This document shows positions 4,860-46,289 of a stretch of 62,354 nt of DNA, in pieces. The notes beneath the pieces are model-generated. The model did not search any database and was not told the origin of the DNA. It worked only from the letters and a program-made list of their open reading frames with translations. Both the position numbers and the translations under genes were made by a program. Position 1 is the first letter of the stretch. Every line of letters begins with the position of its first letter. The stretch spans positions 1 through 62,354 of the forward strand of contig DKEK01000002.1 of NCBI GenBank assembly GCA_002452155.1. The letters run 5' to 3'. Origin of the DNA: Candidatus Saccharibacteria bacterium UBA6824 (GTDB lineage Bacteria; Patescibacteriota; Saccharimonadia; Saccharimonadales; UBA10212).

Positions 4860-7355
4860 ATGATACCTAACAGTCCTGATTTTCAAGAATTCTTAAGCCG
4901 CCTAACCAACAACGCGCTTCACAGCTTGAAGCACGCTGACGCCATTGCCCGGGCCAGCGGCAGCGCTTACATCGGCACCGAGCACTTGCTGCTGGGTGTG
5001 CTGGCCCAAGAAGGTTCGATGGGTTCCAAGATATTAGAGGGCGCCGGAATTACCCTGGACCGGGCCCGTTTGGCGCTGAATTTGACACCTAAAACTCTAG
5101 TTATAAGCATGGGCGGCAAGGGACTATCCGAAACCGCCAAACTGACCTTAAAAATGGCTTGGGAGATCGCCCAGGACTTCAACCAGGACTACTGCGGCAC
5201 AGAGCACGTTTTATATAGTATCTTGAGCCAAAAAAACGCCCGGGCCACGACGCTGCTGCGCGATATGGCGGTTGATACCGACAAACTCTCCGGCGAGGTC
5301 GAGCAATTCTTAAACCGCCAGCAATACGAGGAAGAAGACCGGGCAGCCGGTGTCGCCGGCCGCCGCGGCCGTAGCGGCAAAAAATCGGCCCTGGAATTTT
5401 TTGGCACTGATATGACTGAACTGGCCCGCGAGGGCAAGCTGGACCCGGTTGTCGGCCGCGAAGCCCAGATCAAACGCGTTATCACCATCCTTAACCGCCG
5501 GACCAAAAATAACCCGGTGCTGATCGGCGAACCGGGTGTCGGCAAAACGGCGATTGTTGAGGGCATTGCCCAACGTATTGTCAGCGAGGAAGTGCCCGAT
5601 ACCCTGCTCGATAAGCGGATTGTGACGCTAGACCTGGCCGGCATGATCGCCGGTACCAAATACCGGGGCGAGTTTGAAGACCGGCTGAAAAAGGTTATTG
5701 CCGAACTGGAAAACGATAAAAGCACGATTATCTTTATCGACGAGCTGCATTTGATTGTCGGCGCCGGCGCGGCCGAAGGCAGCATGGATGCCGGCAACAT
5801 CTTAAAACCCAGCCTGGCGCGCGGTAAAATCCACATGATTGGCGCCACCACCACCGATGAATATACCCGATACGTCGAAAAAGACGCCGCCTTAGAGCGC
5901 CGCTTCCAGCCTATTTCGGTGCCCGAAACAACCACGGCTGAAACGCTGGCCATCTTAAAGGGCCTGCGCAAACACTACGAAGAATTTCACGGCGTCAAGG
6001 TTGATGATGAAGTACTGGCTGACACTGTAGGCTTTGCCCACCGCTATATTAACGACCGCTACATGCCCGATAAGGCCATCGATCTGCTGGACGAAACCGC
6101 CGCATATCTGCGGGTCAATAAAGGTAAGACGCCGCCGCAGATGCGCCAACTGCAAAAAGAACTCAAGCTGGTCAATACCCGGATTGAAGACGCCGTCGAA
6201 ACCGAAGACTATGAAAAGGCCGCCCAGCAAAAGCAAAAAGCCAGCCAATTGACCGACCAAATTAAGGAGCTTGAGGCCACCCACAAAACCGGCAAGCCTA
6301 TCACCATCAACGGTGACGACGTAGCCGAGACGGTGGCCCGTATGACAGGTGTGCCGGTAACCAAAGTCATCCGCAGTGAAGCCAAGTATTTAGTTAATTT
6401 GGAAAAGAACCTCAGTAAATACGTTGTCGGCCAGGACGAAGCAGTCGAAACAGTGTCGCGCGCCGTCCGAAGATCCCGCAGCGGCATCTCCAGCGAAAAG
6501 CGGCCTACCGGTTCGTTTATCTTCTTAGGGCCGACCGGCGTCGGTAAGACCGAGCTGGGGCGGGTACTGGCCCGCGAATTCTTCGGCAGCGACGAAGCCC
6601 TGGTCAAAATAGATATGAGCGAATTCGCCGAACACCACACGGTTGCCCGCCTGGTCGGTGCTCCGGCCGGCTACGTCGGCTATGACGACGGCGGCCAACT
6701 AACCGACAAGATCCGCCGCCAACCGTATAGTGTGGTCTTGTTTGATGAGATCGAAAAAGCCCACCCGGATGTCTTTAATATGCTGCTGCAAATCCTCGAA
6801 GACGGAGTGCTGTCCGATGCCAAGGGCCGGAAGATTGACTTCACTAACACGATTGTTATTATGACCAGCAACATTGGTGCCGAGAAGCTGCAAAAAGAAG
6901 GTGGCTTTGGCTTTTCGGCCACCGGTTCGGATGTCAATAATCTCGATGACCTGCACGACGCCAACAAAAGCAAGGTATTAGACGACCTCAAGAAGATGAT
7001 GCGGCCGGAACTGCTCAACCGTATAGATAAAGTAATTGTCTTTAGGGCGCTGACTAAAATCGACGCCCTTAAAATCCTTGATCTCCAGCTTGACGACCTG
7101 CGGGCCCGGCTGGTTAAAAAGGGCATTGGGCTCGAAGTTACCAAGGCTGCCAAGCAGTACCTGATGGAGCAAGGTTACGATGCCCATAACGGCGCCCGGC
7201 CAATGCGCCGCCTCCTACAGGAAACACTGGAAGACGCTATCGCCGGCGGCATGCTGGACGAAAGCTACCAAAAGGGTGACGTTGTTAATGTCAGTGCCAA
7301 AAAATCACCGAAAGATAAAGAACCCGAACTGACTTATTCGTCGGTTGCCGAATAA
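4860..7355 (+). CDS. clpC: ATP-dependent Clp protease ATP-binding subunit ClpC (class I Clp/Hsp100)
   Basis: 831 aa. Duplicated Clp_N repeats at the N-terminus, two AAA modules (GEPGVGKTA and GPTGVGKTE Walker A boxes) and a short middle domain typical of ClpC rather than ClpB. Confidence 0.93.
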
Positions 7356-31100: not shown

Positions 31101-31968
31101 GCCCAAAGGTCAAGCTTATCTAACCGACATCACCGGGACGGTCAACGCCTGGGAAGAGGGCGACCAATACATTGTCCAAGTAACCGCCAAAAAACAAAAG
31201 CCGGTCGAAATATCTATCGGCGATCGGCAAACAAAGGTCAAAACCGGCGACGAAGTTAACATTGGCGACATCGTAGCTGCCAGTGAAGACGCCAGCGACC
31301 CCCTAGCCGCCACCATGGTAGGCAAAGTCAGCTTAAGTAAAGGTCAAATTACCATTACCCCAACCTCTAAGAGCATTGTCCGTTACGAGGTACCGGGCTT
31401 TAAGCAGCTACTAGTCAAAGATGGCGACCTGGTGGAAGCCGGCCAGCGCCTAACCAACGGTTCGTTAAACTTGCACGAACTGATGCGCCTGCAGGGCGTT
31501 GAAGCTACCCAGCGCTACATAATGAACGAAATCCTGTATATTTTTGCCAGCCAAGGCCAAACGATTGCCGACAAACATCTTGAAGTCATTGTCCGCCAAA
31601 TGTTTAGCCGCGTCCAAATAGAAGATTCCGGCGATAGCGAGTTCATTACCGGCGATATTGTCAGCAAACTGGCGGTTGCCTCGGCCAACGAAAAACTGGC
31701 TACCAAAAAGAAGAAGCTAATTAAGTCCAACCAGCTGCTGCTGGGCATCACTAAGGCGTCACTGTCGACCGACTCGTTCTTGTCGGCTGCTTCGTTCCAA
31801 GACACCACTCGCGTACTAATTGCCGCCGCCACCAGTGGCAAAGTCGATAACCTCTATGGCTTGAAAGAGAACGTCATCTTGGGCCGTCTGATACCAGTAG
31901 GTACCGGTGCTCGCCGTCTACAGAACGAGGAAGAACCCGAGGAGGCGGCAGTTGCCTCCAAGGGGTAA
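28144..31968 (+). CDS. rpoC: DNA-directed RNA polymerase subunit beta'
   Basis: Start taken as the ATG at 28144, 1 nt after the rpoB stop. Contains NADFDGDQM (catalytic Asp triad), [13 protein letters not shown] and GEPGTQL. Confidence 0.97.
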
Positions 31969-31988
31969 ATTTGCTAGGATTGTAAGCT

Positions 31989-32399
31989 ATGCCGACCGTT
32001 AATCAACTCATACGCAAGCCGCGCAAAATGCCGGGCACTAAAACTAAGTCGCCGGCTCTGCAGCGTGTGGTTAATAATCTGCAGACCAAAAGCTACGATA
32101 AACCGGCGCCGTTTAAACGCGGTGTCTGTATCCGCGTGACTACCAAAACTCCCAAAAAGCCTAACTCGGCGCTGCGTAAAGTTGCCCGCGTGCGTTTGAC
32201 TAACGGCCACGAAGTCTGGGCCTACATTGGCGGCGAAGGCCACAACCTTCAAGAACACGCTGTGGTTTTAGTGCGTGGCGGTCGCGTGAAAGACCTTCCG
32301 GGTGTGCGTTATCACATTGTCCGCGGCAATCTGGACCTTCAGGGCGTACAGGACCGCAAACAGGGCCGGAGTAAATACGGCAGCAAAAGGCCCAAATAA
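31989..32399 (+). CDS. rpsL: 30S ribosomal protein S12
   Basis: [10 protein letters not shown]...[16 protein letters not shown]. Confidence 0.97.
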
Positions 32400-32878
32400 T
32401 GCCTCGTAAGACTACAAAATCGTTAGTTCGCGATGTGGAGCCCGACCGGCTATATAACAACCCCCAGATTACCAAGGTTATTAACCGTGTAATGCTTAAC
32501 GGTAAAAAACAGCTGGCCGAGCGGTTGGTGTACGGCGGCATGCAAAAAGCTGCTGATAAACTGAAAGTCCAAAACCCGCTGGAAGTCTTCGAACAAGCTA
32601 TGAAAAACGTCCAGCCTTATATGGAAACCCGCTCGCGCCGGGTTGGTGGCGCTAATTATCAAATCCCTTTTGAAGTTAAGGGACAGCGTCAGCAGCACTT
32701 AACTATCATGTGGTTTGTGAGTGCCGCCCGTGACCGCAAAGGTATGAGCATGGAAGATCGCATAGCCCAGGAGCTGATGGATGCCTATAACAACACCGGG
32801 GCGGCTGTCAAGAAAAAAGAAGACGTCCATAAAATGGCCGAGGCTAACCGAGCCTTCGCCCACTTTGCTAGGTCGTAA
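32399..32878 (+). CDS. rpsG: 30S ribosomal protein S7
   Basis: PDRLYNNPQITKVINRVMLNGKKQLAE...RRVGGANYQIPFEV. Confidence 0.97.
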   Translation: MPRKTTKSLVRDVEPDRLYNNPQITKVINRVMLNGKKQLAERLVYGGMQKAADKLKVQNPLEVFEQAMKNVQPYMETRSRRVGGANYQIPFEVKGQRQQHLTIMWFVSAARDRKGMSMEDRIAQELMDAYNNTGAAVKKKEDVHKMAEANRAFAHFARS

Positions 32879-32879
32879 A

Positions 32880-33167
32880 ATGCCGCCTCTTACTAAAGCT
32901 CCAGGGAGCTACTACTCAGAAATAGGAACAACGGAGTTTGATAGTTTATTCGATCGCGCCCAGTCAGGTGAATTCGATCCGTGGGCTGCTGTGGCAGAGG
33001 ATAGACCCAAGTACGTCGTTTGGTCCATAAGAGGGGAGCTACCGCAGGTAGCATTATTGGCACTCCAGGAAGAAATTGGCCAGAGCATAACTGCGCAGCA
33101 GACGGAAGCTTTGAAAGTATCGAAGAATATAAGAATGCTTGGAAGTACGTCAATTTTAAATACTTGA
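32880..33167 (+). CDS. Orphan ORF-A (95 aa), first of three ORFs inserted between rpsG and fusA
   Basis: ATG 1 nt after the rpsG TAA. The part of the 128-aa track ORF that overlaps rpsG was discarded. No recognised motif. GC is lower than in the flanking genes. Confidence 0.5.
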   Translation: MPPLTKAPGSYYSEIGTTEFDSLFDRAQSGEFDPWAAVAEDRPKYVVWSIRGELPQVALLALQEEIGQSITAQQTEALKVSKNIRMLGSTSILNT

Positions 33168-33206
33168 ATTTAATAATTATGATAGATAGGAAACACAATT
33201 TAGATT

Positions 33207-33530
33207 ATGTCTGGCCCAGAAACTGAAGTCCATTCTACGGTCGAAACAGGCTCCGGCTGCTCTTTGAACTCCCCGGAACATGAAGAGGGCGGAGCATTTT
33301 ATCGGATTTTGGTCAGAGAACGGGAAGAGCTGGAAGGGGATTTCGTTATCCTGTACGAAAAGGGTCTTGCTCGCAATATTCATAGTGAGCCTATCGGTGA
33401 GGGTCGCTCGCGCGCCGATATTGATGCGGCCTTTTCAGGGTGCCCCTGTCATGATCCCGCAAATGCCGGCCGACAACTAGGCAAGGCCGGCTGCTGGGCG
33501 ATAAAGGAACTAAACGAGGTGAAAGAATAG
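33207..33530 (+). CDS. Orphan ORF-B (107 aa), Cys-containing (GCPCH)
   Basis: Open frame after a 39 nt AT-rich gap. No recognised motif. Confidence 0.5.
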   Translation: MSGPETEVHSTVETGSGCSLNSPEHEEGGAFYRILVREREELEGDFVILYEKGLARNIHSEPIGEGRSRADIDAAFSGCPCHDPANAGRQLGKAGCWAIKELNEVKE

Positions 33531-33532
33531 CC

Positions 33533-33955
33533 ATGACCGAAAGCGCCCGAACTAACGTCACACCGTGCAGGAATTGCCGCTATTTAACCGAGCCGGTTGT
33601 CGCGCACTCCGAAGAACTCGGCGAAATAAAGGCAACCTTGGCCCCAGACGGCTCAATTGTTGTCCATCGTCCTAGTGACTGCGGAACAGGCCACTTCCAA
33701 AAGCTGGAAGGCGGCGCGATCAAGCTGGAAAGCGGTGTGATCGAAAACCAATCTAAGACTGCGGCCAAAGATATAAAACAATGCACAGGGTCATTTACTG
33801 AGACCGTCCCCGTGCCTAGAAAATGGCTGGGGTGGCTGGGGATAAAGGAGGAGGTGGAAGTCGTACATTGTGGCTCGCTTTACGATGGAGACATCATCCA
33901 AATAGTAGAAAGAGAATTACTTCACCCGGCGAGGATTGAAGAGCAGGGAGTATAA
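33533..33955 (+). CDS. Orphan ORF-C (140 aa), Cys/His-rich (CRNC...DCGTGH...QCTG...HCGS)
   Basis: ATG 2 nt after the ORF-B stop. Its stop abuts the fusA GTG directly (0 nt gap). A CxxC plus three further Cys suggests metal binding. Confidence 0.55.
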   Translation: MTESARTNVTPCRNCRYLTEPVVAHSEELGEIKATLAPDGSIVVHRPSDCGTGHFQKLEGGAIKLESGVIENQSKTAAKDIKQCTGSFTETVPVPRKWLGWLGIKEEVEVVHCGSLYDGDIIQIVERELLHPARIEEQGV

Positions 33956-36043
<2,088 letters not shown>

Positions 36044-36087
36044 ATTACGATTGACCATACTTCTTTTCGCAAGCTAGACTAGCTTAA

Positions 36088-37614
36088 ATGGTTAAAAACA
36101 TTGCCCAAAAAGCAATCGAGCAGTTAATTCGAAAGCCGAAGCTATTTCGGTCGCCGGTGCTAGCTTTGCGGTCGGTTGTATCTAAAAGCGGAAAAGGTGT
36201 TTACGCCAGTTCAGATCGCTTATTTAAAGGCGCGGTTTTTGGTCGTGACTCACTAGTGGTAGCGGAAGATCTCATGACCCTTCGGCCATTACTGGCAAGA
36301 AAAATTTTGCTGACGCTAGCCAGCTTACAGGGGCTCAAGCACCGAAGTGCCAACGAAGAAGAACCGGGAAAAATTATTCACGAATACCGCACCAATGTGG
36401 TTGACGATAAGCCGCTGCAGGGAGTGCCGCTGCAAATCTTTAACGATTTGAGCAAAAGATGGGGCGGCAGCGACACGGAGCTTATCTACTACGGTTCAGT
36501 AGATTCAACGCCTCACTTTATCAAGGCACTTTGTGAATACCTCAGTTTTTATGGTCCGAGAATCCTGGGGCGCAAAATTACTCTCCAAGATAGATCAACT
36601 GCAACTATGTATGATGTGCTAGCTGACGCGCTGAATTGGCTGGAGTCAAAACTCGGTCATTCTAAGAGCGGGCTGCTTGAATACCATGCCCATACCGATG
36701 AGAGTCTTGAAAATCAAGCATGGAAAGATTCAAAAGAATTCTATGTTCATGAAAATGGCCGATTTGTTAACCATTCAAGACCGGTGGGCTCAGTCGAAGT
36801 GCAGGGCTTGGCCTACGATGCTCTAATAGCAGCCGCTGAGTATTTTCCCCCTCGATCCGAAAAACTGAACCGGACAGCCCACAGACTTCGCGACCGGACT
36901 ATTGAATTGACCTGGCAGCCCGAACGTAAATACTTCGCCCTTGGCATCGACTACACTCAACAGGGCGAGCTACGCGTTATTAAAACTACGACCGCTAATC
37001 CTGCCTCACTACTCAATTCTGATTTTTTTGACCACCTATCTCAGGAGAAAAAAAGAAAATATATCAGTGCGATTGTGCGAAATATCATGGGCACCGAGTT
37101 TTTGACCGATGCCGGAGTGCGAAGCCGTGCCTTAAGCGAGGCCAACCTTATTCCATTCTGGGATTATCACGGGTCTTATGTAAGTTGGCCCAAGGAGACT
37201 TTCGACATTGCCAAAGGTCTACGCCGTCACGGCTTTCCTGAGTTGGCAAAACAATTGGAAAACCGCTTGCTTAACGTGGTTCGCAAAAGCCGGGGCTATC
37301 CGGAATTTTTATACGTCGATCCTCGTGGTCGAGTACTGGGCGCTTCATCTGGTGCACACCGCCATACCCATTCACTACAGATAAGGAGCAGTAACGTGCC
37401 CGAAAGCATACAGGCCTGGACGGTCTCGGCGGTTGTCGCTATATTGGCTAATCGAAGACCAGGGCTTAGAATAGGTAAGAACAAGCAAGAATCCTGGCAG
37501 GAGGAGTTAGAAAAAGAAGTGTTAACTCACATCCCGCATGTATCCTCCTTAAAATCCCGAACCTTAAACGCTCGCTATCCTGATTACCCCTACGAATTGA
37601 GAGGCAAGCAATGA
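36088..37614 (+). CDS. Amylo-alpha-1,6-glucosidase / glycogen-debranching-enzyme-like (GDE_C family, (alpha/alpha)6 barrel) protein
   Basis: Family-typical blocks: FGRDSL, EEPGKIIHEYR, YYGSVDSTPHFI, ENQAWKDS, VEVQGLAYDAL. Confidence 0.7.
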   Translation: MVKNIAQKAIEQLIRKPKLFRSPVLALRSVVSKSGKGVYASSDRLFKGAVFGRDSLVVAEDLMTLRPLLARKILLTLASLQGLKHRSANEEEPGKIIHEYRTNVVDDKPLQGVPLQIFNDLSKRWGGSDTELIYYGSVDSTPHFIKALCEYLSFYGPRILGRKITLQDRSTATMYDVLADALNWLESKLGHSKSGLLEYHAHTDESLENQAWKDSKEFYVHENGRFVNHSRPVGSVEVQGLAYDALIAAAEYFPPRSEKLNRTAHRLRDRTIELTWQPERKYFALGIDYTQQGELRVIKTTTANPASLLNSDFFDHLSQEKKRKYISAIVRNIMGTEFLTDAGVRSRALSEANLIPFWDYHGSYVSWPKETFDIAKGLRRHGFPELAKQLENRLLNVVRKSRGYPEFLYVDPRGRVLGASSGAHRHTHSLQIRSSNVPESIQAWTVSAVVAILANRRPGLRIGKNKQESWQEELEKEVLTHIPHVSSLKSRTLNARYPDYPYELRGKQ

Positions 37615-37666
37615 TTCACACAAAACCCGGGGTTGCATCATACAACTTGTTACCTAGAACGACCGT

Positions 37667-38725
37667 ATGGAGCGTCGGATGAAGATTGCGATTGTCGCGC
37701 CGCCATACTATACCATTCCGCCCAAAAAATACGGGGGTACGGAACGTGTAATTCACGGCTTAATCAAAGGCTTGAAAGAGCTAGACCACGAGCCGCTGTT
37801 GCTAGGCCCTGGTGACTCAAAAGTGGATTGCGAACTCATTCCTATAGTTAATAAGGCGTTAAATTTCCCGAAGAAAGACTCGGCAGCTTTTCGTAAATCG
37901 GTGTCTACGGCTCTAAAAAAGACAGGTATTGAGCTTAAAAAAATAGCCACCGCAGTAGACATTATTCATTCCCACGGTTTTGACATGAAGTCATTCGCGA
38001 AGCTACCCAACGTCACAACCCTGCATGGCCACATAGGGTTCGATGACCTTAGTTATTACCGCCAAAGGAAAACACTGCCTTTCATCAGCATATCTAAAAA
38101 TCAGCAAGCCGCCTATCCCTATCTGAACTACGTTGGCGTAGTTTATAATGGCTTGGATCCGAGCGAGTTTCCGGTAGTTACTATGCCAAGAGACTACCTC
38201 TGTTTTATAGGCCGATTTGATTTAGATAAATCACCACACCTGGCTATTGAGCTGGCCCTTAAGCTAGGAATGAAGATCAAGCTTGCCGGCAAGATTGATC
38301 TTGATGGCGCCAGCTATTTCAAAGACCAAATCCAACCGTTTTTAGACCACCCGCTGGTCGAATATTTAGGTGAAATTGGCTTTGCCCAAAAGATAGATTT
38401 AATCGGTAAGGCCAAATGTAATCTACACCCCCTCCTTGGCAGGCGCGAGCCCTTTGGTCTAACCGTAATCGAAGCCGGTTACTGCGGAACACCCACCATG
38501 GCCATGAACCGGGCCTCTATGCCGGAGATTATTCGCGATGGCCGTACGGGCATACTGGTTGAAGACTTTATAGAGGGCTACAGCCAGATTGAGGCTTGCT
38601 TCAAAATGGACAGAAAGTACATTGCCCGGCGTACCCGCCGTCATTTTAACTATCAAAGAATGGCCGAAGATTACGAGAAAGCCTACAAAAAAGTCCTCGG
38701 CGAGTTCGGCGAAACATCGAAGTAG
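37667..38725 (+). CDS. GT4 (GT-B fold, group 1) glycosyltransferase
   Basis: MKIAIVAPPYYTIPPKKYGGTERVI N-terminus and the C-terminal EPFGLTVIEAGYCGTPTMAMNRASMPEIIRDGRTGILV (E-x7-E region). The start is either 37667 or the Met at 37679. Confidence 0.8.
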   Translation: MERRMKIAIVAPPYYTIPPKKYGGTERVIHGLIKGLKELDHEPLLLGPGDSKVDCELIPIVNKALNFPKKDSAAFRKSVSTALKKTGIELKKIATAVDIIHSHGFDMKSFAKLPNVTTLHGHIGFDDLSYYRQRKTLPFISISKNQQAAYPYLNYVGVVYNGLDPSEFPVVTMPRDYLCFIGRFDLDKSPHLAIELALKLGMKIKLAGKIDLDGASYFKDQIQPFLDHPLVEYLGEIGFAQKIDLIGKAKCNLHPLLGRREPFGLTVIEAGYCGTPTMAMNRASMPEIIRDGRTGILVEDFIEGYSQIEACFKMDRKYIARRTRRHFNYQRMAEDYEKAYKKVLGEFGETSK

Positions 38726-40273: not shown

Positions 40274-40618
40274 ATGGCAGAAGCTAAGAAAACAACCAAG
40301 ACAGAGCCGGAGATAAAGCAGCGGATTCGCATTCGCTTAAAGGCTTATGATCATAAAGTTATTGACCAATCTGCCAAGCAGATTGTTGAAACGGCTCTAC
40401 GAACTGGTGCCAACATTGCCGGGCCCATACCGCTGCCTACCAGAAAAAGCACTTACACCGTCGTCAAGAGCCCTCACGTCTATAAAAAGGGCCGCGAGCA
40501 GTTCGAAATGCGCGTCCACAAACGACTTATAGATATCAGCGACCCGACCCCCAAGACCATAGATTCGCTCATGAATCTCAGTCTTCCGGCTGGCTGTGAC
40601 GCCGAAATCAAGATGTAA
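40274..40618 (+). CDS. rpsJ: 30S ribosomal protein S10
   Basis: [24 protein letters not shown]...[24 protein letters not shown]. Confidence 0.96.
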
Positions 40619-40903: not shown

Positions 40904-41290
40904 ATGGATAAGTACACAATCTTGCGGTTTAAGGACGTGCCGCCGCAGCATTTTGGCGGCGACCCGTCGGCAGTTGATGTACGCTTTTACCGGGACCAGC
41001 TAGGCATGGCCGGCGGCGGTATGACGATTATAAAAATTGGACCTGGCATAACTACACCGGCCCACACCCACAGAAACCAAGAAGAGGTCTACCTGGTGAT
41101 TGACAGCGAAGTGACCATTAAGCTCGAAGACAAACTAGTTAGACTTAAACCCTACGATGCCGTGCGTGTGCCTAAAGAGGTTAAACGGGCTCTGCGCAAT
41201 ATGGGGAAAGGTCCGGCCACTACCATCGCGTTTGGTACGCCAAACACCGGCCCAGGCGACGCTAACCCCATTGACAATTTCTGGGACTAA
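40904..41290 (+). CDS. Cupin-domain protein
   Basis: GITTPAHTHRNQEEVYLVIDSEV...LKPYDAVRVPKEV matches the two-motif cupin_2 pattern G(x)5HxH(x)3,4E and P(x)xxxxxN-like. ATG 1 nt after the preceding stop. Confidence 0.7.
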   Translation: MDKYTILRFKDVPPQHFGGDPSAVDVRFYRDQLGMAGGGMTIIKIGPGITTPAHTHRNQEEVYLVIDSEVTIKLEDKLVRLKPYDAVRVPKEVKRALRNMGKGPATTIAFGTPNTGPGDANPIDNFWD

Positions 41291-45658: not shown

Positions 45659-45861
45659 TAGTGAAAATTGTTGATATTCGGAAGAAAAGTACCAATGACT
45701 TGGCTGTCCAAAGCACGCAGCTGCGCGAAGAAATTAGCGAAATGCGCCGCCGGCTTTACAGCGGTGAAGTTACCAATGTCCGGGCTATCCGGGCCAAGCG
45801 TCGGGACCTGGCACGGGTTATGACAGTTTTAGGCGAACAGCTAAGCAAGGAGAGCATCTAA
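45655..45861 (+). CDS. rpmC: 50S ribosomal protein L29
   Basis: Position and the LREEISEMRRRLYSGEVTNVRAIRAKRRDLARV pattern. Confidence 0.9.
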   Translation: MIVKIVDIRKKSTNDLAVQSTQLREEISEMRRRLYSGEVTNVRAIRAKRRDLARVMTVLGEQLSKESI

Positions 45862-46289
45862 TGGCCCGACAACTTACCGGGAAAGTAGCCAGTGACAAGA
45901 ACGACAAGACGATTGTCATTAGCGTTGCCAGCCGAAAAACCCACCCTATCTACAAAAAGCAGTACACGCGCAACACCAAGTTTATGGCCCATGATGAGCA
46001 GAACGAGGCCAAAACCGGCGACTTGGTAATAATCCGGGAAACTCGCCCGCTGTCGGCCAAAAAACGATTTATCTTAGAGCGAATTTTAGAAAAAGCCCAC
46101 GCCGGATTTGTGGAAACTGACGCCACTGCCGATGTTCCGGAGGAACCCAAAGAAAAGCAGCCGGTAAACGTTGAGAGGCCTGTAGTGGCTGCCGAAGCGA
46201 CCGAAGCCGCACTCAATGAAGATAAGCCCAAAAAGGCCGCCAAATCTAAAAAAGCAGCCGAAGCAACAGATAAGGAAAGCCAAGAATGA
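45861..46289 (+). CDS. rpsQ: 30S ribosomal protein S17 with a K/A/E-rich C-terminal extension of about 60 aa
   Basis: [16 protein letters not shown]...[43 protein letters not shown], then a low-complexity tail. Confidence 0.93.

Follow-up and report, generated by a model that had tools for sequence, protein, structure and literature searches.

The rpsL-rpsG-fusA string is a textbook case of frozen gene order. The question raised by the str operon of a Saccharimonadales (TM7) genome, that of Candidatus Saccharibacteria bacterium UBA6824, is what occupies the 1.08 kb found between rpsG and fusA at positions 32880-33955 of the DNA analysed here (contig DKEK01000002.1, assembly GCA_002452155.1; the whole stretch of 62,354 nucleotides (nt) is referred to as the window). 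A first-pass annotation had placed there three orphan open reading frames (ORFs) of 95, 107 and 140 amino acids (aa), designated ORF-A, ORF-B and ORF-C in the present work, and had taken them for an insertion between two genes that are normally adjacent. Comparison with related genomes favors, with moderate confidence, another answer, namely that ORF-A, ORF-B and ORF-C are the window's contents of an order-wide, fast-turnover rpsG-fusA slot of small, probably zinc-binding proteins.

Occupancy of the rpsG-fusA interval in Saccharimonadales

The sample consisted of the 80 best S7 matches from Saccharimonadales genomes (S7 80-94% identical to that of the window), and the gap between rpsG and fusA was measured in 75 of them. 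By ORF tiling, the gap was occupied by one to four co-directional ORFs in 70 of the 75 loci, while only five displayed a tight junction of 5-34 bp. Therefore, rpsG and fusA are not normally adjacent in Saccharimonadales, contrary to what the first-pass annotation had assumed, and the window with its three ORFs is the expanded end of an order-wide slot and not a unique insertion. The control junction rpoB-rpoC was tight in the same loci.

The gap mostly measured 200-700 bp and exceeded 1 kb in six genomes (L012, L046, L047, L050, L077 and, with 3.9 kb, L071). Its mean open fraction was 0.87 on the + strand, compared to 0.61 on the - strand and 0.46 in shuffles, the openness of the + strand reaching p <= 0.05 in 56 of 63 spacers. 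The first slot ORF started at a median of 3 nt after the rpsG stop, and within -25 to +15 nt of it in 59 of the 70 occupied loci; the last slot ORF ended within 30 nt on either side of the fusA start in 54 of the 70. The slot as such is thus conserved in the relatives; families corresponding to ORF-A and ORF-B, on the other hand, were not recovered there.

Some loci carry larger cargo. In L071 (6478-10373), the 3.9 kb hold four ORFs including proteins of 369 and 539 aa, and proteins of 255-283 aa followed by small ones were noted in L046 (640-2492) and L077 (6478-7760). L046 also encodes two tandem four-cysteine paralogs of 33% identity; this contig (DATIJU010000023.1) is labelled 'Bacillota bacterium' and is probably mislabelled, its S7 and EF-G being 83% and 82% identical to those of the window, with the same slot architecture.

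Properties of the slot proteins

By BLASTP, slot proteins were mostly unalike. A Smith-Waterman z-score screen returned 34 pairs at z >= 6, compared to 2 in a reversed-sequence control. In every homologous slot pair, the proportion of nonsynonymous differences (pN) was far below that of synonymous differences (pS), and the nonsynonymous rate (dN) exceeded that of S7, compared over the same genome pairs, by a factor of 4-8.

At least four cysteines, usually four or five, were counted in 41 of the 90 rpsG-fusA slot ORFs, compared to a binomial expectation of 0.9%, and cysteine frequency was 2.1% in slot proteins vs 0.53% in long ORFs of the same loci. In the usual four-cysteine layout, an N-terminal CxxC or Cx3C pair is accompanied by two isolated cysteines 8-40 residues apart. 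Within the seven Cys-containing families (z >= 8), 26 of the 37 cysteine columns were invariant compared to 121 of the 608 other columns, and four invariant cysteines were present in six of these seven families. Judged by this pattern, the conserved cysteines appear to mark either a structural metal site or paired disulfides, and the metal would most likely be zinc because slot proteins are cytoplasmic and signal-less. The metal-binding look ascribed to ORF-B and ORF-C by the first-pass annotation is therefore plausible to the extent that cysteines behave as constrained residues.

The median isoelectric point (pI) of rpsG-fusA slot proteins was 4.9, and 82% of slot proteins had a pI below 6, compared to 26% of the genes of the window, which is rich in ribosomal proteins. 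Only one of the 114 proteins from both slots (the second one, between rpsL and rpsG, is described below) displayed a transmembrane (TM)-like segment. No Pfam match at E <= 0.01 was obtained for 83 of 86 slot proteins, the other three giving one marginal match each, of which the best was to a PKD-like domain (E 1e-4). In the DNA of the sampled loci, no paralogs were found outside the two slots. Slot proteins do not look like ribosomal proteins either, as they are acidic and hypervariable, and ORF-A, ORF-B and ORF-C gave no ribosomal Pfam or NCBIfam match.

Organization of the locus in the window

The slot and its surroundings comprise the following features.

31989-32399, + strand: rpsL (ribosomal protein S12, 136 aa; PF00164), the stop of which overlaps the rpsG start
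32399-32878, + strand: rpsG (ribosomal protein S7, 159 aa; PF00177), upstream slot boundary, TAA stop at 32876-32878
32880-33167, + strand: ORF-A, 95 aa, pI 4.6, no Cys, no TM segment; ATG 1 nt past the rpsG stop
33168-33206, + strand: gap of 39 nt between ORF-A and ORF-B, AT-rich, guanine-cytosine (GC) content down to 0.44
33207-33530, + strand: ORF-B, 107 aa, pI 4.9, four Cys, four His, soluble
33533-33955, + strand: ORF-C, 140 aa, pI 5.4, five Cys; ATG 2 nt past the ORF-B stop
33701-33742, + strand: tandem 21-nt duplication within ORF-C (repeat D1, 86% identity; KLEGGAI / KLESGVI)
33956-36043, + strand: fusA (EF-G, 695 aa, GTG start; PF00009, PF03764, PF00679), downstream slot boundary

The junctions between rpsG, ORF-A, ORF-B, ORF-C and fusA measure 1, 39, 2 and 0 nt, in agreement with the operon-style arrangement described at first pass, where ORF coordinates and junctions had been given exactly to the base. 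A GAGGTGA motif lies 10 nt upstream of the ORF-C ATG. The fusA GTG at 33956 abuts the ORF-C stop, and EF-G of relatives aligns from residue 1; an in-frame N-terminal extension of EF-G or a slot ORF fusion was ruled out as an explanation of the gap. The exact pI values are 4.64 for ORF-A, 4.88 for ORF-B and 5.36 for ORF-C, and none of the three has a TM-like segment. ORF-A, ORF-B and ORF-C thus fit the slot class in being coupled, gap-filling, small, acidic, soluble and devoid of a Pfam family. As for the four-cysteine subclass, ORF-C conforms to it, ORF-B has four cysteines but no relatives, and ORF-A falls in the Cys-free subclass.

The same locus was retrieved on 16 contigs, assembled independently from soil and permafrost samples (JGI, ENA and Logan), and, therefore, is not an assembly artefact. 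Ten of the 16 contigs were compared with the window and were 99.5-100% identical to its DNA, leaving no polymorphism for a within-population selection test.

Coding scores were -0.13 for ORF-A, 0.013 for ORF-B and 0.028 for ORF-C, whereas true genes scored 0.27 +/- 0.13 and wrong frames -0.50, and the annotated frame was the best of six for each.

Database searches

Neither Pfam nor NCBIfam gave a match at E <= 1 for ORF-A, ORF-B or ORF-C, and PADLOC gave 0 matches, bearing out the earlier statement that no recognised family is present. Searches against PHROGs returned nothing meaningful for the three ORFs, the best E values of 0.013 and 0.27 being to families of unknown function. Sequence searches of the PDB with ORF-B and with the ORF-C family profile gave zero matches, and those with ORF-A reached no better than E 0.29-0.62. 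Nothing was found at 1e-3 by tblastn of the three ORFs against the 80 related loci.

A word-indexed search of 5.8 billion proteins recovered only the self-match of each ORF. This search overlooked a protein, P0003, that is 55% identical to ORF-C and shares exact 7-residue words with it; the orphan calls for ORF-A and ORF-B are therefore provisional. The exhaustive phmmer search (1.84 billion representatives) covered ORF-C only.

ORF-C and its family

With ORF-C as query, phmmer identified five relatives from soil and forest metagenomes (P0003 to P0007) with identities of 34-55%. P0003 matched residues 2-133 at 55% identity (E 3e-34), and the other four at 34-40% (E 9e-6 to 9e-4); pairwise z-scores within the family ranged from 17.5 to 66. 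Of the three orphans announced at first pass, ORF-C consequently has relatives, while no reliable ones were found for ORF-A and ORF-B. Full-length relatives measure 117-132 aa. On the four contigs inspected (P0003, P0004, P0006 and P0007), the gene begins 1-6 nt after the S7 gene and ahead of the next gene, each standing alone in the slot with no ORF-A- or ORF-B-like ORF beside it.

The cysteines of ORF-C are arranged as one CxxC (C12, C15) plus single cysteines at positions 50, 84 and 113, and the motifs CRNC, DCGTGH, QCTG and HCGS listed by the first-pass annotation are all present. All five full-length members keep C15, C50, C84 and C113, and only one lacks C12; C84 and C113 occur without exception in the six members. 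Compared with its homolog in L091 (S7 92% identical), ORF-C gave a pN of 0.26 and a pS of 0.74, the pN of S7 in the same pair being 0.055; pN is thus far below pS, although the corresponding dN/dS of about 0.09 is indicative only since synonymous sites are saturated. At the tandem repeat of ORF-C, a 7-residue gap opens in every relative. The 21-nt duplication is thus a recent in-frame expansion, because one repeat copy is lacking in all five relatives.

An AlphaFold2 (AF2) model of ORF-C built from the six-sequence alignment was moderately confident (predicted local distance difference test score, pLDDT, 66.8) and of mixed alpha/beta type. Foldseek searches with this model gave no fold match in PDB or BFVD (best E 1.1 and 0.2). 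A hidden Markov model (HMM) of the family recovered only ORF-C among all slot ORFs, and a metagenome pattern scan with a two-sequence ORF-C alignment gave 200 pattern matches and zero confirmed relatives.

The family is retained at its position across genomes whose S7 is only 81-92% identical. On this pattern of conservation, ORF-C is apparently a bona fide gene under purifying selection, belonging to a family tied to the rpsG-fusA position.

ORF-B and ORF-A

The cysteines of ORF-B are C18, C79, C81 and C96, and the GCPCH motif pointed out earlier is present and holds a CPC (79, 81). A link to a slot protein of L004 was suggested by a single weak pairwise score (z 5.3-6.0). This kinship was rejected as unreliable since an HMM of the L004, L030 and L058 proteins failed to recover ORF-B. 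Comparison of ORF-B with the ORF-C family by hhalign gave a probability of 0.1%, so the two are unrelated, and a single-sequence AF2 model of ORF-B was uninformative (pLDDT 40). ORF-B is best explained as a second four-cysteine slot protein, specific to its lineage.

ORF-A has the lowest coding score of the three, a value reached by 14% of wrong frames, and its best z-score against slot proteins was 3.4, revealing no relative. The 95-aa ORF was called as a gene in seven of the ten contigs compared, no 95-aa call being made in L082, L085 and L090. Its start 1 nt after the rpsG stop matches the habit of first slot ORFs elsewhere. ORF-A presents the weakest evidence of the three for a functional gene, and is best explained as a recently arisen, acidic slot ORF that has no Cys and whose function is uncertain. 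Both this explanation and that of ORF-B share the moderate confidence placed in the slot reading as a whole.

Turnover of the slot contents

On a neighbor-joining tree of S7 and EF-G, which is rough, the window groups with L001, L002 and L044. L001, with an S7 94% identical, carries an unrelated Cys-free ORF (80-88 aa) of a family shared with L007; L002 carries another Cys-free ORF, of a family shared with L048 and L052; the slot of L044 is empty. L091 (S7 92%) carries a homolog of ORF-C only. From the measured rate ratio, about 60% identity to the window ORFs would be expected of any ortholog in L001, and none was found. Real replacement, gain and loss therefore take place in addition to fast divergence. 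Most other pairs have S7 80-85% identical, so that true orthologs would be expected to share only about 30% identity, and undetected similarity is consequently no proof of separate origins.

Independent losses are suggested by the scattered placement of the five empty junctions on the tree, and the slot subfamilies are scattered as well. No exchange mechanism was visible; contents may have been exchanged by recombination through the conserved flanks. No nucleotide similarity was found between the spacers of different genomes, except for L016 and L020, which are identical, and for two matches of 37-64 nt among L012, L022 and L041. L016 and L020 were deposited as separate species representatives, and their 633-bp slot regions (6475-7107) are 100% identical, as are their rpsL-rpsG slot ORFs; they may be the same organism binned twice.

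A second slot between rpsL and rpsG

A stretch of 112-335 bp separates rpsL from rpsG in 29 of 79 relatives (for example L004, L012, L016, L057 and L080), the distance being 2-10 nt in the others. Most of these longer gaps hold a coupled ORF of about 60-100 aa starting at the S12 stop, and many such ORFs terminate 8-11 nt inside rpsG, where their stop would be formed by the conserved Arg-Lys codons of S7. A further example lies at L093:506-814. The median pI of second-slot proteins is 4.4 and several have four cysteines. In the window, this second slot is empty since rpsL and rpsG overlap.

Transcription of the slot

Co-transcription with the S7 and EF-G genes, expected at first pass for the three ORFs, was seen for the slot ORF of a relative of the window, L073 (CP025011). 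Soil metatranscriptome contigs matching L073 with zero mismatch cover rpsG into the slot ORF (6280-6505 and 6411-6661), and another (6580-6929, zero mismatch) runs from the slot ORF into fusA. These contigs support co-transcription for the slot class, bearing in mind that metatranscriptomes can contain DNA.

In the window, no + strand terminator-like site occurs within 32880-33955, as noted at first pass. The earlier statement that no promoter is obvious has to be qualified, on the other hand, by a weak sigma-70-like site (TTTAAA, 17 nt spacer, TATGAT; 9 of 12 positions matching) that spans 33155-33183 and is the sole + strand promoter-like site of the interval. A scan of 31800-36300 for the sigma-70-like consensus returned 14 sites compared to 3.7 +/- 2.0 in shuffles, and five sites on the - strand (33232-33053) fall in ORF-A, the beginning of ORF-B and the gap separating the two.

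Proposed role of the slot and alternative explanations

In the reading favored here, the slot encodes between one and four soluble, acidic proteins of small size (about 60-160 aa), which would be transcribed as part of the str operon and translated by coupling to the rpsG stop and the fusA start. About half of them, including ORF-C and ORF-B, would hold a structural metal, likely zinc, via four cysteines, with a small fold around the metal and the other residues free to drift. The contents diverge fast in addition to being gained, lost and replaced. Slot products, synthesized together with S12, S7 and EF-G, could most likely serve as accessory binding proteins that the cell can dispense with. 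They might escort or modulate the elongation machinery or basic ribosomal proteins, or protect either from antagonists; they would be neither enzymes, nor ribosomal proteins, nor mobile-element genes. Two narrower roles would suit both the chemistry and the gene position, that of acidic escorts of the very basic S12 and S7 and that of FusB-like protectors or decoys of the elongation machinery.

Several observations weigh against this reading. The hypervariable sequences and the five independent losses speak against any conserved contact with S7 or EF-G, which are themselves highly conserved. Thirty of the 90 slot ORFs are Cys-free, so that the slot is not one uniform family, and at z >= 6 the slot proteins fall into 17 small families and 70 singletons, the four-cysteine subfamilies not being shown homologous. 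The synonymous rate (dS) is saturated in all pairs, which makes dN/dS rough. As for the window itself, the coding scores of ORF-A, ORF-B and ORF-C lie in the lowest 1-4% of true genes, and no RNA run holding the window sequence was found. Finally, ORF-A and ORF-B are without homologs, so that selection on either is not measurable, and their orphan status rests on the word-indexed search that missed P0003.

A bolder version of the slot reading can be put forward tentatively. The str operon would contain two positions, after rpsL and after rpsG, where small proteins continually arise, swap and vanish at ribosomal-protein expression levels. The four-cysteine acidic products would form an unrecognised class of fast-evolving translation partners or protectors in episymbionts (S12/S7 escorts, or decoys against translation toxins of hosts, competitors or phages), and Cys-free ORFs such as ORF-A would be proteins being born.

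The main rival to the slot reading is that of a translated spacer or gene nursery, in which the gap need only stay open for coupling and for polarity protection into fusA, the peptides being by-products and some of them newborn genes. ORF-A, and perhaps ORF-B, would be such products. This explanation accounts for most slot ORFs being unalike, for the low coding scores of ORF-A, ORF-B and ORF-C, for the tight coupling at both slot ends, for the loss of the contents in five lineages with the operon kept, and for the absence of relatives of ORF-A and ORF-B. It does not account for the fourfold enrichment in cysteine and the conservation of 70% of cysteine columns compared to 20% of the others, nor for the consistent acidity of the proteins. 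Moreover, all homologous pairs have a pN far below pS, members of the ORF-C family hold the same position in genomes with S7 only 81-92% identical, and a junction of 5-34 bp works in five lineages, so that a long spacer is unneeded for coupling. As a general account the translated spacer is thus considered unlikely, while for ORF-A it is quite possible.

A more specific function than that of the slot reading would be an EF-G- or ribosome-directed protection factor, whereby the four-cysteine proteins bind EF-G or S7/S12 and shield translation, in a FusB-like manner, from inhibitors or toxins of hosts, competitors and phages, the resulting arms race driving their variability. Saccharibacteria live on Actinobacteria, producers of many translation inhibitors, which counts in favor of this explanation, as do the adjacency and coupling of the genes with fusA and rpsG, the second slot after rpsL, the four conserved cysteines, and the fast divergence and turnover. 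However, searches revealed no likeness to FusB/FBP and no similar entry in Pfam, PDB or BFVD, and the targets are conserved, so that the interface of a binder would be expected to be conserved as well. This protection factor is accordingly regarded as improbable.

The first-pass annotation had also raised the possibility of a selfish cassette. Such a selfish or horizontally acquired cassette (a mobile element, a toxin-antitoxin pair, or a phage or defence gene exploiting a highly expressed operon) would be consistent with contents that differ between close relatives, with the scattering of subfamilies on the S7 and EF-G tree, and with the larger cargo in L071, L046 and L077. On the other hand, direct or inverted repeats and target duplications at the borders were limited to short repeats at chance level, and no integrase, transposase or other mobility gene was found in the 1.08 kb slot. 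Phage, plasmid-type and defence families were likewise missing, with no PADLOC match and no meaningful PHROGs match. The GC content of the slot (0.44-0.56) resembles that of the flanks, the spacers of different genomes are without nucleotide similarity, and all slot genes are co-directional and coupled. A selfish origin therefore appears very improbable.

Least credible of all is a non-coding regulatory RNA (an S7-binding leader or an attenuator before fusA) with incidental ORFs: RNA elements have been proposed between rpsG and fusA in other lineages (PMC2965389), but Rfam gave nothing at E <= 1 in 31900-34200, no + strand terminator-like site was seen, 56 of 63 spacers have a + strand far more open than chance would give, and the spacers lack nucleotide conservation, the constraint being at the protein level.

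Other departures from ribosomal gene order in the window

Further along the window, fusA does not directly precede tuf. A 508-aa MGH1-like glycoside hydrolase (weak Pfam match) and a 352-aa GT1/GT4 glycosyltransferase are encoded at 36088-38725, and tuf starts from 38859. The hydrolase is common to only seven of the 80 relatives (51-75% identity), namely L001, L002, L008, L014, L024 and L044 at 2.1-2.7 kb from the fusA start, with L014 a further 0.5 kb on. Between rpsJ (S10, 40274-40618) and the start of the L3-L4-L23-L2 string, a cupin-domain protein of 128 aa (PF07883, E 3e-10) is encoded at 40904-41290 and represents another break in normally conserved ribosomal gene order. The S17 gene (45861-46289) encodes 142 aa, of which only residues 7-72 correspond to the Pfam S17 domain, leaving a C-terminal extension of about 70 residues.

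Significance and comparison with known systems

A whole order of ultra-small, host-dependent bacteria keeps one or two hypervariable mini-gene positions inside the str string. Should the encoded proteins act on the translation machinery, organisms with ribosomes already known as unusual would possess lineage-specific accessory factors of translation; if not, the slot would be a natural experiment in protein origin and testing under very high, coupled expression. In either case, the slot provides a compact, easily amplified marker of Saccharibacteria strain-level diversity as well as a defined set of about 100 small four-cysteine proteins for structural and binding studies.

Literature searches returned no description of rpsG-fusA ORFs in Saccharibacteria or in the candidate phyla radiation (CPR). 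The only published features found at this interval are RNA attenuators or leaders proposed to lie in the rpsG-fusA gap of streptococci and Pelagibacter (PMC2965389). These attenuators occupy the same interval of the str operon, but they are non-coding and of roughly 100-200 nt, whereas the slot contains translated-looking ORFs with no Rfam match.

Compared to its own family, which is unnamed and has no Pfam model, ORF-C differs in having neighbors in the slot, its relatives standing alone, and in its extra 7-residue tandem repeat.

FusB and FusC are EF-G-binding proteins that confer fusidic-acid resistance and contain a four-cysteine zinc-binding domain; FusB measures about 213 aa, has two domains and is not encoded in the str operon. 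The slot resembles them in associating four-cysteine proteins with EF-G, the link here being gene adjacency and coupling alone. Unlike FusB/FBP, ORF-A, ORF-B and ORF-C measure only 95-140 aa, and they display no Pfam or NCBIfam match at E <= 1 and no PDB sequence or fold match.

Small zinc-finger micro-proteins of archaea and bacteria and rubredoxin-like zinc ribbons are built on two CxxC/CPxCG knuckles. Slot proteins share with the micro-proteins a length below 150 aa, a cytoplasmic location and four cysteines as chief conserved residues. ORF-C and ORF-B differ from zinc ribbons in that neither has two knuckles, and no profile match was obtained.

Finally, hotspots of gene turnover between conserved core genes are known in bacterial pangenomes, and the slot shares with them highly conserved flanks (S7 and EF-G 80-94%), contents that differ entirely between close relatives, and gain and loss that recur. 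Unlike these hotspots, the slot lies inside an essential operon and consists of one to four tiny co-directional ORFs, coupled in translation to both neighbors, without mobility genes or repeats and with a recurring acidic, four-cysteine chemistry.

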